Of a stretch of 64,000 bases of DNA, positions 2,581-54,188 are shown piece by piece. The notes below the pieces were generated by a model. That model was given only the letters and a program-made list of their open reading frames with translations, had not been told where the DNA came from and searched no databases. Where the stretch lies: positions 14,815 through 78,814 of the forward strand of contig CAZSVL010000005.1 of assembly GCA_964610305.1 (NCBI GenBank), read 5' to 3'. The translations under genes and the position numbers were made by a program. The first letter of the stretch is position 1. The number at the start of each line of letters is the position of its first letter. Origin of the DNA: an uncultured Gammaproteobacteria bacterium. Its GTDB lineage: Bacteria; Patescibacteriota; Patescibacteriia; Magasanikbacterales; JBBTXJ01.

Positions 2581-2656
2581 AACCGCCACTTTTCTGTGAG
2601 ATCCCGGATAAATTGCTGCGCAATTTTCCGGGATGACATGGAAGGGCGGTTTTTTG
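2581..2656 (+). terminator. long hairpin plus T-run, putative intrinsic terminator; contains an internal ATCCCGGA...TCCGGGATGAC palindrome
   Basis: CCGCC at 2583-2587 pairs with GGGCGG at 2644-2649 and is followed by TTTTTT. The internal palindrome belongs to the same repeat family. Confidence 0.4.
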
Positions 2657-2667
2657 GTTTAAGATAT

Positions 2668-3019
2668 GTCATTCTGAACTTGATTCAGAATCTCACAGAA
2701 GTATGTCAGGATATAAATCTCTCCACTCCCTATTGTCTCTAGAAATCAAGTCTTCTTTCCAGGGACGTTTCCAGGCTTTCAGTTGCTTTTCTCGTGTGAT
2801 GGCTGACTCCGCATTTTCGTGAATGTCGTAATACACTAGTTTGTTTACGTTGTATTGCTTAGTAAAGCTTTCCTTGGCTCCCTCTCTGTGTTGCCACATT
2901 CTCTTTTTCAAATTACTCGTTACCCCAATGTACAAAACCGTATTGGTCTGATTGGATAAGATGTAGACGTAGTACTGTTTGTGCATTGCTGTTAGATCCT
3001 GAATCAAGTTCAGGATGAC
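2668..3019 (-). mobile_element. GIY-YIG gene cassette bounded by 25-bp terminal inverted repeats (putative small mobile element)
   Basis: Left end GTCATTCTGAACTTGATTCAGAATC (2668-2692). Right end GATCCTGAATCAAGTTCAGGATGAC (2995-3019), whose reverse complement is GTCATCCTGAACTTGATTCAGGATC. Each end is itself an internal palindrome. Confidence 0.5.
2693..2986 (-). CDS. GIY-YIG nuclease family protein (about 98 aa)
   Basis: YVYILSNQTNTVLYIGVTSNLKKRMWQHREG is a GIY-YIG/URI motif. ATG at 2986 is the likely start. The ORF-track extension to 3007 uses a TTG inside the inverted repeat. Confidence 0.75.
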   Translation of the reverse strand: MHKQYYVYILSNQTNTVLYIGVTSNLKKRMWQHREGAKESFTKQYNVNKLVYYDIHENAESAITREKQLKAWKRPWKEDLISRDNREWRDLYPDILL

Positions 3020-3080
3020 GAAGGGGTGTTCAGGATGACGAAGGGGTGTTCAGGATGACGAAGGGGTGTTCAGGATGACG
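3011..3080. repeat. tandem repeat, 20-bp unit CAGGATGACGAAGGGGTGTT x 3.5
   Basis: Perfect copies are read directly. The unit begins with the outer end of the right inverted repeat (TTCAGGATGACG) and sits between the GIY-YIG start and the trpS stop. Confidence 0.85.
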
Positions 3081-3081
3081 T

Positions 3082-4119
3082 CTACAAACCAATTTTTTTC
3101 CTGGCTTTTATCATGCTCTTCTCTGCAATAAAATGAGCCTTTCTGTTTGCCAGCTTTGAGAGTACGTCTCTTTTCAGCAGACCTGCACGTTTTTTTCTGA
3201 AGTTGCCAAAGTAATCTGAAATTGAGCGTGCTGTTGTTTGTTTGAGGTCTTTGTAAGAGATGGATTGGCCAGTAAAGCGCATGTTGTCTTTTTCTGAGCC
3301 AAAGTATTCTAGTAGTTTCAGCAGGTTGTACGCTCCAGCTACTCCTTCATTTTTTCCGGCTCCTGGTTTGAGAATCCATTCCCCTTTCCATGCTACAGGG
3401 ATTTTTCCGGTGCTCTCTGTTTTGGCTTTCTTAATTTTTTCTGCAATTGTTTTTGGAGAGTCGCTTAGATTGATGACGTTTTTTTCGCCATGAGATTTAC
3501 TCATTTTTTTATGAGGAGCGGTAAGGCTCATAACACGTGGGGTAGGGGTAAGGATGGGTCTGGCCTCTGGAAAGGTCTTTCCGTATCTATTGTTAAACCA
3601 GCGCGCAATTTTTCTAGTGAGCTCTACGTGTTGTACTTGGTCTTCTCCAACAGGCACGTGCGTCCCGCCGTAGAGTAGAATATCGGCCGCCTGCAAAACA
3701 GGGTAACTAAAGAGTCCATTATTAATATTATTTTTTTGATCTAATGACTTATCTTTAAATTGAGTCATCCGTGAGAGCTCTGCAATGGGCGTAACGCAAT
3801 TAAACATCCAGCCCAGCTCTGTGTGTTGAGGCACGGCCGATTGCAAAAAGAAAACAGACTTGCGATTGTTAATGCCAAGAGCAAAAAGCTCTGCTGCCAT
3901 CATTTTTACATTTTTTTTGAGCTCCTTGCTTTCAGGCGCTTGCGTCAGCACGTGCAAATCAGCAATAAAAAAGAAGCACTCGTTTTTTGGATCATCTTGC
4001 AATTGCTTCCAGTAGCGCAGCGCACCTAAATAATTTCCGATGTGAAGCGGTCCGCTTGGCTGAATGCCAGATACAATAGTGTGTTTCATAGTAGTCTTAT
4101 TGTAATCCCATATAGACAT
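3082..4119 (-). CDS. trpS: tryptophan--tRNA ligase
   Basis: Class I HIGH motif (PSGPLHIGNYLGA) and KMSKS (HKKMSKSHG). Overall TrpRS-like layout. True start may be the internal MKHTIVSG. Confidence 0.85.
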   Translation of the reverse strand: MSIWDYNKTTMKHTIVSGIQPSGPLHIGNYLGALRYWKQLQDDPKNECFFFIADLHVLTQAPESKELKKNVKMMAAELFALGINNRKSVFFLQSAVPQHTELGWMFNCVTPIAELSRMTQFKDKSLDQKNNINNGLFSYPVLQAADILLYGGTHVPVGEDQVQHVELTRKIARWFNNRYGKTFPEARPILTPTPRVMSLTAPHKKMSKSHGEKNVINLSDSPKTIAEKIKKAKTESTGKIPVAWKGEWILKPGAGKNEGVAGAYNLLKLLEYFGSEKDNMRFTGQSISYKDLKQTTARSISDYFGNFRKKRAGLLKRDVLSKLANRKAHFIAEKSMIKARKKIGL

Positions 4120-5306: not shown

Positions 5307-5652
5307 GTCATCCCGGACTTGATCCGGGATCCAGGGAATACGGATATAAGTCTCTCCATTGAGGATTATGCTCTTCTATCAGATCAAGCTTCCATTTGCG
5401 TTTCCAATTTTTGAGCTGTTTTTCACGCGCAATAGCTTGGCTAGCAGATTTATATTCCTCAAAATGAACCAATTTTGATACATTGTATTCTTTTGTAAAT
5501 CCTTCTGCTTCTTTCTTTTTGTGTTGCCATGTTCGTTTGAGTACGTCGTTGCTTACACCGATGTAAATCGTACCATTTCTTTTACTAGCTAATATGTAGA
5601 CGTAGTACGATTTTGCCATATACACTGGATCCTGAATCAAGTTCAGGATGAC
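5307..5652 (-). mobile_element. second GIY-YIG cassette bounded by 25-bp terminal inverted repeats
   Basis: Left end GTCATCCCGGACTTGATCCGGGATC (5307-5331). Right end GATCCTGAATCAAGTTCAGGATGAC (5628-5652), identical to the right end of the first cassette. Confidence 0.5.
5308..5619 (-). CDS. GIY-YIG nuclease family protein (about 103 aa)
   Basis: YVYILASKRNGTIYIGVSNDVLKRTWQHKKK motif. ATG at 5619 is the likely start (track start at 5640 is again a TTG in the repeat). The C-terminal LDPGSSPG residues and the stop codon are encoded by the left inverted repeat. Confidence 0.75.
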   Translation of the reverse strand: MAKSYYVYILASKRNGTIYIGVSNDVLKRTWQHKKKEAEGFTKEYNVSKLVHFEEYKSASQAIAREKQLKNWKRKWKLDLIEEHNPQWRDLYPYSLDPGSSPG

Positions 5653-7485: not shown

Positions 7486-7627
7486 ATTTGTTGCGCGATA
7501 AAATCGCGAAAGATATAAAGAAAGTTAAAGTTATTGATTATTAATTTTTAGACACCCACTAGTTTAGTTGGTGTTTTGTGTCGGGATCCTACCGCCTGCT
7601 ACGCGGCTCCAGGATGACGCTTGCGCG

Positions 7628-9592: not shown

Positions 9593-9811
9593 TTAAACAA
9601 AGAGATTTGCCAGTGCCGTGGCAAAGAAAAGCAAGGAAAGAAGAATAGTAGCACGGTAGAGCATTTTGTCAACACCGCGCTTAGTTGAGTATACATTTGA
9701 AGATCCTCCAAACACACCAGAGAGGCCGGTGCCCTTCTGCTGTAATAAAATGACCGCAATAAGCGCAATGCTTACAACCACCTGTAGTCCTGTTAGAAAA
9801 GTTTGTGTCAT
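9593..9811 (-). CDS. secG: preprotein translocase subunit SecG
   Basis: 72 aa with two TM segments and the LLQQKGTGLSGVFGGSS signature typical of SecG. Confidence 0.75.
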   Translation of the reverse strand: MTQTFLTGLQVVVSIALIAVILLQQKGTGLSGVFGGSSNVYSTKRGVDKMLYRATILLSLLFFATALANLFV

Positions 9812-9899
9812 GAAGTATTCTAGTTCTTAGGAGAGTATAGCATGGTAGCGTGTTTGGGTCAAGGGTGTGGGGGTAGCGTTTAGGGTGTAGCCTCTTAGC

Positions 9900-9986
9900 G
9901 TCATCCGCAGCTTGATTCAGGATCCAGGTAGGAATATAAGACGTACTCTATTTCTGCCCTAGATTCTGAATCAAGTTCAGAATGAC
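9900..9986. mobile_element. miniature gene-less derivative of the GIY-YIG inverted-repeat element (two repeats about 37 bp apart)
   Basis: GTCATCCGCAGCTTGATTCAGGATC (9900-9924) and GATTCTGAATCAAGTTCAGAATGAC (9962-9986). The internal GGAATATAAGACGTACTC resembles the GGATATAAGTCTCTCC that follows the repeats in the gene-carrying copies. Confidence 0.5.
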
Positions 9987-10050
9987 AAGCTGGACTACAC
10001 ACACCCTATACCCTAACCGCTACACGCTGAGGATATGCTATAATAGGTGC

Positions 10051-10812
10051 ATGTCATTTTCGGCAACCGATGGAGCCAAAAAACCGTTTTGGAAAAAGCC
10101 GTGGGGAATAGTACTCTTGGTGGTAGCAGGCATTTTTTTGATAATGCTTATTCTTTTTTCTTTGCTCACACTCTCCTTTTATAACCGGCTTTTGGCAGGA
10201 GAAGATTTATCTGAATATGCAGGAAGGAGCAGCTTTACGCAATCAGAAGCGTACGACAGAGCAGTGGAGTCAGAAGTTGCTCTTGCAGAGGTGGGCAGCA
10301 CGGATGATCCAAGTCTTGGCAATGAAAGCGCGCCCATAGAGATAGTAGAGTTTTTAGATTTTGAATGTCCTTTTTGCGCGGCGGAGTTTCCTATAATAAG
10401 AGAGATAGCCACCAAAAATCCAGAGCTCATAAGATATGTTGTAAGAGATTTTCCGCTAGAAGATCAGCATCCCGGAGCCACGCTTGCATCTGAGGCAAGC
10501 GAGTGCGCACATGAGCAAAATAGGTATTGGGCATATCATGATAAACTTTTTCAAAATCAACAGCCTTTCAGCAGAGAGGTGCTCATAGATTTAGCAGGGC
10601 AGGTGGGATTGATGGTAGATGATTTTACGCAGTGCTTGGATGAAGAGCGATATAAAACAGAGGTAATGGAAGATTTGCAGGCCGGAATAGATGCAGGCGT
10701 AGTGGGAACACCAACATTTTTTGTAAACGGATTTAAATTGCAGGGAGTAATTCCAACGGAGGCATGGGAAGAAATAGTACAACTAGCCGCTTCATTGCAG
10801 GTTTCATTGTAG
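10051..10812 (+). CDS. DsbA-like thiol:disulfide oxidoreductase, membrane-anchored
   Basis: CPFC active site (EFLDFECPFCAAEFP) and thioredoxin fold. N-terminal TM segment. Start set at ATG 10051 because the track start at 9982 lies inside the repeat element. Confidence 0.7.
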   Translation: MSFSATDGAKKPFWKKPWGIVLLVVAGIFLIMLILFSLLTLSFYNRLLAGEDLSEYAGRSSFTQSEAYDRAVESEVALAEVGSTDDPSLGNESAPIEIVEFLDFECPFCAAEFPIIREIATKNPELIRYVVRDFPLEDQHPGATLASEASECAHEQNRYWAYHDKLFQNQQPFSREVLIDLAGQVGLMVDDFTQCLDEERYKTEVMEDLQAGIDAGVVGTPTFFVNGFKLQGVIPTEAWEEIVQLAASLQVSL

Positions 10813-50783: not shown

Positions 50784-50834
50784 GTCATCGCGAGGAAGCC
50801 TGCCCCGGACTTGATCCGGGGTGGCGATCCCGCC
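50784..50834. repeat. palindromic element GTCATCGCGAG...CCCCGGACTTGATCCGGGG...GCGATCCCGCC plus T-run (same family as the GIY-YIG inverted repeats)
   Basis: Contains the CCGGACTTGATCCGG palindrome seen at 5311-5327. Its ends match the in-gene copy at 53609-53647. Confidence 0.4.
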
Positions 50835-50881
50835 TTTTTTGACGAGATTGCTTCGCCTGCAGCTCGCAATGACCAAAAAAT

Positions 50882-53271: not shown

Positions 53272-53454
53272 ATGAAAAAACATACACTACATACGCTTGC
53301 CGGCTTTACGTTTTTAGTAGCTGCCGCACTTCATTTATCACGGTTTGTGACAAAAGCAGATTTAGCGTATGGCAGCTACGTTATTCCACTGTGGTTTTCT
53401 GTTGTGGTAGGACTCTGGGCGGCCTTTCTAAGTTACAAGAGCTTTAAAAGTTAA
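53272..53454 (+). CDS. hypothetical small membrane protein (60 aa)
   Basis: Two hydrophobic segments. May be spurious. Confidence 0.25.
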   Translation: MKKHTLHTLAGFTFLVAAALHLSRFVTKADLAYGSYVIPLWFSVVVGLWAAFLSYKSFKS

Positions 53455-54188
53455 TGAGAATAAATAAGTTCTTAACACAAGCAAATTATTGTTCACGCCG
53501 TGAGGCGGACCGTTTGATTGAAAAAGGTTTAATCAAAATCAATGACACGGTCGCTCAGCTTGGACAGCAAGTGCAAACGGGCGACCGTGTTTTTGTTGTT
53601 ACCCACCCGTCATCCCGAGCGAGCAAAGCGAGTCGAGGGATCCCGCCAAATTGGACAGAAGTAACTTTAGGCACTGAAGAGAAAATATATCTGGCTTATC
53701 ACAAGCCAGTGGGTGTTATTTGCGCCACTGACACAACCAAACCAGACAACATTATTGACGCCATAAATTATACAGAGCGTGTCTATCCTGTTGGTCGGCT
53801 TGACGTTGCCAGCTCTGGTTTAATACTGCTTACCAATGATGGAGATATTGTTAACAAAATTCTCAAAGGTAAGCAAAAGATAGAGAAAGAGTATGTGGTA
53901 GACGTTGATAAGATTGTAACTGAAAAAAAATTGGGAAAATTAAAAAAAGGTATTGTATTGGACTGGCATAAAACACTGCCTGCAAAAATAAAAAGGACAG
54001 GTACAAAACGTTTTTCAATAACTATAGTAGAGGGAAGAAACAGGCAAATCAGACGCATGTGTGAAGCGGTTGGATGGAAGGTGGTTCGGCTTCATAGGGT
54101 GCGTATTGGTTCGTTGTGTCTTGGAAGTTTAAGGGTGGGAGAATATAGAGAGTTAGAGAGTCCTCCTCTTGACAATAATGGCCAATAA
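53454..54188 (+). CDS. rRNA pseudouridine synthase, RsuA/RluB family (S4 domain plus PseudoU_synth_2), carrying an in-frame palindromic-element insertion
   Basis: S4 domain at N-terminus. YHKPVGVICA (KPxG) and the catalytic Asp in GRLDVASSGLILLTNDG. Confidence 0.75.
   Translation: MRINKFLTQANYCSRREADRLIEKGLIKINDTVAQLGQQVQTGDRVFVVTHPSSRASKASRGIPPNWTEVTLGTEEKIYLAYHKPVGVICATDTTKPDNIIDAINYTERVYPVGRLDVASSGLILLTNDGDIVNKILKGKQKIEKEYVVDVDKIVTEKKLGKLKKGIVLDWHKTLPAKIKRTGTKRFSITIVEGRNRQIRRMCEAVGWKVVRLHRVRIGSLCLGSLRVGEYRELESPPLDNNGQ
53609..53647 (+). repeat. palindromic GTCATCCCGAG...GGGATCCCGCC element inserted in-frame in the pseudouridine synthase linker (encodes HPSSRASKASRGIPP)
   Basis: Same end motifs as the intergenic copy at 50784-50834 and the GTCATCC/GGATC ends of the GIY-YIG inverted repeats. 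Lies between the S4 domain and the catalytic domain. Confidence 0.45.

Follow-up and report, generated by a model that had tools for sequence, protein, structure and literature searches.

A gene-less doublet of Ssn-related motifs as the probable core of a palindromic insertion between secG and a dsbA-like gene

Positions 9900–9986 of the 64-kb stretch of DNA analysed here (hereafter the window) carry two inverted hairpin repeats, a doublet, between the divergent genes secG and a dsbA-like gene. Judged from its sequence, the doublet is a gene-less form belonging to the known Ssn system, in which ssnA genes encoding small GIY-YIG nucleases are accompanied by Ssn-related motifs (SRM), and it probably represents the core of a palindrome of ~170 bp that was inserted between the promoters of the two neighbouring genes. 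The original prediction on this DNA had described the same segment as a miniature, internally deleted derivative of a “GIY-YIG element” present elsewhere in the window, similar to a miniature inverted-repeat transposable element (MITE). The association of gene and repeats on which that description was built is real; it corresponds to the published Ssn/SRM system, which the prediction had not recognised.

SsnA of Neisseria meningitidis is a 94-amino acid (aa), single-domain GIY-YIG nuclease that acts site-specifically on single-stranded DNA (ssDNA); it binds the NTS repeat (CGTCATTCCCGCGMAVGCGGGAATCYRG) solely in single-stranded form and cuts a few nucleotides upstream of it (Chenal et al., 2025, Nat Commun, PMC11893778). 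Homologues occur across phyla and are flanked by SRM, on both sides in 42% of cases, Wolbachia being named as an SRM-rich genus, and the NTS-ssnA-NTS arrangement was likened, as a hypothesis only, to an insertion sequence and to the REP/RAYT systems (PMC11893778). The repeats of the window follow the form GTCATYC - variable hairpin - GRATC(Y)(A)G and agree with NTS at GTCAT, at the base of the stem (YC...GRATC) and at the trailing YAG. Their stems vary through paired changes (e.g., TCCTGAA/TTCAGGA vs. TCCCGGA/TCCGGGA), a behaviour seen across 38 distinct 25-mers.

Two ssnA homologues are encoded on the minus strand of the window, copy 1 at 2693–2986 (97 aa; Pfam GIY-YIG PF01541, E 6e-19) and copy 2 at 5308–5619 (103 aa; PF01541, E 9e-17). 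The Pfam domain covers profile positions 1–77 and 2–77 of 78, respectively, and no further domains were detected in either protein beyond a weak T5orf172 overlap. Both resemble the 94-aa homologue of an uncultured Neisseria metagenome-assembled genome (L065), with 59% identity for copy 1 (E 1e-39) and 63% for copy 2 (E 2e-41), and their tyrosine and glutamate motifs align with those of that protein. Each gene is bracketed by repeats: copy 1 by 2668–2692 (plus strand, downstream) and 2995–3019 (minus strand, upstream), and copy 2 by 5307–5331 (plus strand, downstream; GTCATCCCGGACTTGATCCGGGATC, with compensatory changes relative to the common variant and a folding energy of −9.6 kcal/mol) and 5628–5652 (minus strand, upstream). 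At 80 homologue loci of the genome collection, drawn from many phyla, NTS in its canonical form and the variant with a CTTGA loop hold the same positions around the gene, and at one of these loci (L009) the very 25-mer of the window stands on both sides of ssnA. NCBIfam contains no family-specific model for the two GIY-YIG proteins, and the PDB returned only weak matches, to two UPF0213 GIY-YIG proteins (BH0048 and EF2693).

The correspondence with the published system thus extends to the repeat itself (GTCAT, a hairpin of variable sequence, and ATC-Y-R-G; oriented and mostly intergenic) and to its placement on both sides of a single-domain GIY-YIG gene of ~95–105 aa (PMC11893778). Differences are found in the stem, which is here A+T-rich (CTGAAC/ATTCAG) and falls outside the published search pattern, and in the host, which appears Patescibacteria-like by named homologue matches. 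In addition, gene-less outward-facing doublets, filled and empty sites, and inversion are present in the material examined here and are not described in that study.

The doublet reads GTCATCCGCAGCTTGATTCAGGATC, then CAGGTAGGAATATAAGACGTACTCTATTTCTGCCCTA, then GATTCTGAATCAAGTTCAGAATGAC, that is, two 25-nt arms and 37 nt between them, in agreement with the prediction of two inverted repeats of one family lying about 37 bp apart. The left arm (arm B, 9900–9924, plus strand, GTCATCCGCAGCTTGATTCAGGATC) is a degenerate Ssn-related hairpin motif with three mismatches to the pattern GTCATYCTGAACTTGATTCAGRATC, while the right arm (arm A, 9962–9986, minus strand, GTCATTCTGAACTTGATTCAGAATC) is a perfect one with none. 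When up to three mismatches are allowed, this pattern matches five times in the window against 0.00 expected (100 shuffles), the five matches being both arms of the doublet and three of the four repeats that stand beside the two GIY-YIG open reading frames (ORFs). Both arms start with GTCAT, like every other family member in the window, and the bases following the palindromes (ATCCAG after the left arm, ATCTAG after the right) fit ...ATCYRG; both GTCAT ends face outward, as they do in the repeats around the GIY-YIG genes. In an inverted-repeat search the doublet was recovered as 29-nt arms, 79% complementary and 29 nt apart, and within the spacer (9925–9961) the outer 3–4 nt (CAGG / CCTA) are the conserved extension of the repeat, leaving a core of 29 nt. 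As predicted, no gene lies between the repeats: the spacer holds no GIY-YIG ORF, and the sole ORF across it, a mechanical GTG frame of 33 codons, runs on the minus strand through both arms.

The right arm folds into an 8-bp stem with a 5-nt loop (−5.6 kcal/mol, z −3.1). All three substitutions of the left arm fall in the 5′ half of its stem and, because of these mismatches, the canonical 8-bp hairpin no longer forms, which leaves the right arm as the one intact hairpin of the pair. The orthologue of the left arm in a related genome (L085), GTCATGCTGAACTTGATTCAGCATC, is intact and carries a compensatory pair. A target duplication of a palindromic site was considered as the source of the two arms and ruled out, as their loops are reverse complements (CTTGA / TCAAG) and not identical.

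The doublet is flanked, as had been stated originally, by secG (9593–9811, minus strand) and by the DsbA-like gene, whose start is placed by homologues at 10051 and not at the ATG at 9982, inside the right arm. A promoter-like site of secG (9834–9862, minus strand, TTGACC-17-TATACT), conserved in relatives, abuts the left edge of the inserted block described below, and an extended −10 element of the dsbA-like gene (10036–10044, plus strand, TGCTATAAT), conserved in L082, L085, L086, and L088, abuts its right edge. The genes are divergent and no terminator-like site was found around the doublet, by which a reading of the palindrome as a terminator was ruled out.

Evidence for an insertion comes from syntenic relatives, which were reached through the DsbA-like protein (identity of 80% in L085, 72% in L082/L083, 57% in L086, and 54% in L088). 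In L082/L083, L086, and L088 the site is empty: the start codons of secG and dsbA are 65–77 bp apart and the −35 hexamer of secG is followed by the extended −10 element of dsbA within 4–7 nt. By comparison with these empty sites, a block of ~170 bp (about 9865–10034) in the window is an insertion between the two promoter elements, both of which are intact beside it. The extent predicted originally, 9900–9986, is therefore real as the core of the doublet but falls short of the inserted block. The block arose after the split from the L082 lineage. Outside the doublet it consists of a left outer arm (9865–9899, absent from the empty sites) and a right outer arm (9987–10034), the outer boundaries of both being approximate; these arms are themselves inverted (9873–9890 / 10006–10023, 89% complementary), and the region 9840–10035 folds as ssDNA into one long hairpin (−37.8 kcal/mol, z −4.7).

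In L085 the site is filled and the doublet is flipped, the plus strand of L085 matching the minus strand of the window at 79 of 87 positions (91%). Third codon positions of the two genomes are identical at 57% in dsbA and 74% in secG, and the doublet is far better conserved than these silent sites; for the spacer, identical at 34/37 positions (92%) across near-saturated silent sites, the probability of at least 34/37 matches at p = 0.74 is 0.006. The outer arms of L085 again form inverted repeats (−56.9 kcal/mol, z −12). They have diverged from those of the window with the same changes on both arms, so that they are complementary within each lineage. The centre has since been inverted in one of the two carrier lineages, and recombination between the outer inverted arms would be the simplest route; a comparison of which outer flank travels with which arm (window vs. 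L085) was of low power. Independent Logan assemblies back one junction per lineage (L081, from metagenome SRR8146441, for the window; L084, from metagenome SRR3880533, for L085, on the dsbA side). Both are short-read assemblies that break inside or at the edge of the doublet (L081 at 1–10, L084 at 1–25), as expected for a long palindrome, and such elements probably fragment assemblies of these genomes. The outer arms (9843–9899, 9997–10028) are built from TAGCGTTTAGGGTGTAG, which resembles the spacer/−35 region of the secG promoter (TAGCGTGTTTGGGTCAA), a similarity that hints at an origin by direct and inverted duplication of flanking host DNA.

These same features could be accommodated if the ~170-bp palindrome had been co-opted as a regulatory or structural element of the host (a cruciform or a protein-binding site) and kept by selection, an explanation that is compatible with an SRM origin. 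It would account for the exact placement between the −35 hexamer of secG and the extended −10 element of dsbA, for a doublet and spacer far more conserved than silent sites, for outer arms that diverged between lineages yet stayed complementary within each, and for long hairpins much more stable than shuffled controls in both genomes. However, three relatives have the same two promoters and no insert, so the genes do not need the block; the core repeat family occurs in many unrelated contexts; and the left arm is decaying in the window. Such a host function is considered unlikely.

Several results weigh against the interpretation of the locus as an inserted SRM doublet with a palindromic surround. 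The published SRM pattern, HGTCWYN(0-2)YYVSBRHN(0-5)WNVSBRGN(0-2)RNCYNB, has 0 matches in the whole window. The misses arise because G/C is required at stem positions where the A+T-rich window variant has T/A, and the 5307 arm, by reading, fails only at the first (H) position; the failed pattern is treated here as a limit of an operational search string and not as the definition of the family. Comparison of the junctions with the three empty sites revealed no target-site duplication. The spacer is single copy in the window; among 208 fetched loci it recurs only in the orthologous L085, and a scan of the contigs of the JGI metagenome collection for its conserved 20-mer gave no match. Outer inverted repeats were not found as a general property of doublets or gene-carrying units, the palindrome being peculiar to the secG/dsbA locus. 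L085 is a low-coverage assembly (metagenome ERZ1030316) and palindromes are hard to assemble, with L084 in support of the dsbA-side junction, and the evidence for mobility is presence or absence between species only. Lastly, neither the conservation of the spacer nor the arm-matched divergence of the outer arms finds an explanation under a simple model in which the doublet is a relic.

The lack of duplications and of further copies bears equally on the likeness to a MITE that had been proposed originally. A classical MITE derived from a transposase-encoding insertion sequence, in which the hairpin repeats would be incidental, is suggested by the size of ~170 bp, the terminal inverted symmetry, the intergenic position and the presence/absence polymorphism. 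The likeness stops at the small size and the inverted ends (arms of 25–29 nt): neither junction shows a target-site duplication, further copies are lacking in the collections named above, no transposase was found with the repeats, though the window was not systematically annotated, and the inverted arms belong to the SRM family that accompanies ssnA. The product of the partner gene is a nuclease and not a known transposase, and we know of no transposase activity in the GIY-YIG family. A classical MITE is accordingly barely credible. Other short intergenic palindromic blocks with inverted repeats, often adjacent to promoters and polymorphic between strains, include the dRS3 arrays of Neisseria and elements of the Correia and ERIC types. 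Correia elements, with their defined 26-bp ends and TA duplication, differ from the present block, in which neither a duplication nor a family of identical copies is seen.

The inserted SRM doublet preferred here gains context from the arrangement of repeats across genomes. The spacing of nearest GTCAT-out pairs is bimodal, with 73 pairs at gaps of 0–59 nt, 12 at 60–299 nt and at least 41 at 300–400 nt (gene inside), whereas tail-to-tail and direct pairs show no short-gap peak. This bimodality makes doublets look like a standard gene-less form and not like members of a deletion series. Within a doublet the arms are usually unlike one another and correspond to the two repeat types found around the ssnA gene of the same locus (L003, L025, L035); spacers in other genomes start with YAG and end with CTR, and two doublet spacers of L035 agree over their first 14 nt with the leader of the local ssnA unit at 13/14 positions. 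Among 71 distinct short doublet spacers from other genomes, remnants of ssnA coding sequence (DLY, YVY, W..LY) did not occur above chance. In our reading, doublets represent a regular form without a gene that is linked to the gene-carrying unit, and as a class they do not look like deletion remnants. A composite arrangement is seen in L003, L025, L051, and L002 (~2750–3330 in each), where a complete doublet stands before ssnA and a single repeat after it, so that the repeats nearest to the gene are direct and not inverted.

For the doublet at 9900–9986 in particular, the original prediction held that the spacer is the sequence that follows the repeats in both gene-carrying copies, and hence that the doublet is an internally deleted, non-autonomous copy. 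The first claim is partly borne out for copy 2, whereas the match to copy 1 is not significant. An alignment anchored at the left arm and extended inward pairs the spacer with the 3′ end of copy 2 at a score of 10.5 (p ~0.001), four of the matched bases (CAGG) being the conserved extension of the repeat itself (...ATCYRG); the corresponding value for copy 1 is p ~0.3. Read on the sense strand in the read-through frame of copy 2, the spacer is AGG GCA GAA ATA GAG TAC GTC | TTA TAT TCC TAC CTG GAT, and copy 2 starts ATG GCA AAA TCG TAC TAC GTC and ends TTA TAT CCG TAT TCC CTG GAT. The 5′ end of the spacer therefore agrees ungapped with the first seven codons of copy 2 at 14/21 positions, and its end resembles the last ~5 codons, with an in-frame junction at a short stretch shared by both ends of the gene. 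With the extensions removed, single-jump spliced alignment of the 29-nt core gave p = 0.005–0.04 for copy 2 and 0.01–0.09 for copy 1, for which a reverse-complement control scored as high; the L009 unit, which has the same repeat, gave no significant spliced-alignment signal with the core. Alignments of the spacer to full units with free long gaps were uninformative, as the reversed spacer scored equally, and were replaced by the anchored and spliced alignments.

On these grounds a recent deletion within an SRM-ssnA-SRM unit, leaving the terminal repeats and a few codons from each end of the gene as a non-autonomous, MITE-like remnant, is a possible origin of the doublet. The spacer may be the relic of a copy-2-like ssnA that suffered an in-frame deletion between the similar stretches CGTCTACATAT and GACTTATAT, an event that is possible but unproven. 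Besides the match to copy 2, such an origin is supported by the outward GTCAT architecture common to the doublet and the two full units, by the match of spacer and leader in L035, and by the L082 site that corresponds to copy 1, where only a collapsed hairpin is left and whole units can thus go. The sequence of events that had been predicted is consistent with a gene-less pair in the same outward arrangement, inserted relative to relatives and with a copy-2-like spacer, but the significance is marginal once the extension of the repeat is left out, copy 1 scores no better than its reverse-complement control and L009 shows no match; none of the 71 other spacers has DLY or YVY remnants; the spacer lengths are bimodal, with no continuum of deletions; and neither a target-site duplication nor extra copies were found. 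The conservation of the spacer, at 92% across near-saturated silent sites, also misfits a decaying remnant or pseudogene fragment. A deletion origin of this doublet is plausible, though well short of an even chance.

The doublet form has parallels in two other systems. Rfam family RF02625 (WsnRNA46), a small RNA (sRNA) family of Wolbachia, matches exactly 9900–9986 on the plus strand, and its consensus (GuCauccg...GGgauCcaG - spacer - CugGauuCC...cggauGaC) has the same GTCAT-out doublet form, ending ...GGATCCAG / CTGGAT.... One Wolbachia doublet appears to have been catalogued as an sRNA family. That the doublet of the window is itself a small structured RNA like WsnRNA-46 is, however, very unlikely: the match has 20.1 bits against a gathering threshold of 65.3 (E 0.09–0.22), no better than animal microRNA hairpin models, the two spacers are unrelated, and the doublet is situated upstream of the two divergent promoters, with no promoter facing in and no terminator after it.

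The second parallel is formed by doublets of repetitive extragenic palindromic (REP) sequences, known as REPINs, and the REP-associated tyrosine transposases (RAYT) that accompany them (Bertels and Rainey, 2011, PMC3116915). Shared features are two inverted hairpin repeats with a short spacer, the formation of a long hairpin, the lack of a target-site duplication and the presence of the same repeats around one small nuclease-type gene. The partner differs, being a GIY-YIG nuclease and not an HUH/Y1 transposase, so that no covalent DNA-protein intermediate is expected, and the present doublet is single copy in the searched sequence; the likeness is one of architecture, not of family. By this analogy, the inserted SRM doublet would be to the ssnA genes 4–7 kb away what a REPIN is to its RAYT gene. 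On DNA that has become single-stranded, as in replication, repair or DNA uptake, an Ssn protein supplied in trans would bind a hairpin-folded arm and, to judge from the Neisseria and Wolbachia enzymes, would introduce a nick at the outer border of the doublet, a few nucleotides 5′ of GTCAT. In the window, a cut is expected at the right arm, on the minus strand at ~9987–9995; the left arm, having lost its stem, is predicted to be inactive.

Other members of the family are also polymorphic between related genomes. The window contains 13 repeats (1354+, 1419−, 2637−, 2668+, 3019−, 5307+, 5652−, 7618−, 9900+, 9986−, 50784+, 50873−, and 53609+), ten of them within its first 10 kb together with the two ssnA genes, whereas the syntenic 20 kb of L082 have one collapsed hairpin, so that the repeats show strong clustering and are specific to a lineage. 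L082 lacks both ssnA units, the solo repeats and the doublet at 1354–1419, its sigma and anti-sigma genes being 3 bp apart. At the site of copy 1 (2668–3019 in the window), L082 has at 3059–3085 only GTCATTCTGAACTTGATTCAGGATGAC, a symmetric hairpin with GTCAT on both strands, which is the exact product that would be expected from recombination between the TTCAGRAT stem halves of two inverted repeats. Taken together, the differences from L082 indicate that units were gained or lost as blocks between related genomes. Similar symmetric hairpins occur upstream of the ssnA of L078 and in L112.

A second gene-less doublet lies between the genes for an ECF sigma factor and its anti-sigma factor. A degenerate mini-copy had been predicted in this place at 1364–1419; the element exists, though its actual limits are 1354–1419 (GTCATTCTGAATGAAGTGAAGAATC / GTCATCCTGAGCGAAGCGAAGGATC, with a 16-nt spacer). 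The third is found at 50784–50873, upstream of ndk, also with a 16-nt spacer, and its left arm (50784–50829) is nested, with a CCCCGGACTTGATCCGGGG hairpin within a GTCATCGC...GCGATC stem. The solo repeats comprise one with a long stem at 2600–2637 (minus strand, GTCATCCCGGAAAATTGCGCAGCAATTTATCCGGGATC; −13.6 kcal/mol, z −5.4), one at 7585–7618 (minus strand), between the RNase J gene and an SBP gene, for which no such repeat was found in L082, and one at 53609–53642 (plus strand), in frame within a pseudouridine synthase ORF (53454–54188). The last sits in the linker between the S4 domain (residues 1–46) and the catalytic domain (79–205) and adds the peptide ...HPSSRASKASRGIPP..., which recalls the in-frame palindromic elements of Rickettsia.

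The two ssnA copies of the window are only 56% identical at the protein level and are therefore not recent duplicates, although they share their repeats: their upstream repeats are an identical 25-mer and the downstream repeat of copy 1 is the same variant. The distance between the copies is about that of either one to the Neisseria homologue. The ORF of copy 2 runs through its downstream repeat, the stop codon being the TGA of GGATGAC and the resulting tail LDPGSSPG*, and the ssnA of L009 is likewise read through a repeat (3263–3304; tail DSESSSE*); some annotated proteins thus end in a C-terminal tail encoded by a repeat. Three tandem 20-nt units (3020–3079, minus strand, GTCATCCTGAACACCCCTTC) lie immediately upstream of the repeat at 2995–3019, each made of the 5′ half of the repeat and 8 nt of upstream flank. 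Duplications of a half-repeat plus 8–10 nt upstream of repeats are found in many phyla (L001, L006, L025, L038, L055, L058, L065, L076), and L082 has the same kind of duplication as a 9-nt AAGGATGAC repeat. The duplicated half-repeat segment covers the region of reported Ssn cutting.

A broader proposal would be that SRM doublets and SRM-ssnA-SRM units are active, nuclease-driven mobile or self-renewing DNA, the GIY-YIG counterpart of RAYT/REPIN. Nicking by Ssn at the outward GTCAT ends of a palindrome would then cause blocks to insert and be lost with no duplicated target, make the centre flip back and forth, give rise to the tandem half-repeats seen upstream of many SRMs and, through sequence copied from one arm to the other, keep long palindromes symmetric even as they drift. 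This proposal is tentative and rather doubtful at present; if it were true, the secG/dsbA block would be among the first loci in which filled, empty and flipped states are compared.

Ssn nucleases and their repeats were described only in 2025, and the spread of the repeats and the mobility of the units were left there as an open hypothesis. The locus offers a natural comparison in this respect among related uncultured bacteria, as it brings together empty sites, a gene-less doublet, two full units, a collapsed hairpin and an inverted copy. New here, and of modest interest, is the evidence from related genomes that blocks are gained and lost whole, that one has been inverted and that a long palindrome has been conserved. 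For the annotation of these genomes, short ORFs and odd protein tails (DPESSxG*, or the in-frame SRASKASRG insertion) are to be regarded as derived from repeats. The comparisons show that such blocks come, go and are rearranged as whole units with no target duplication, and they also point to a gene-less doublet form that is conserved across many phyla.

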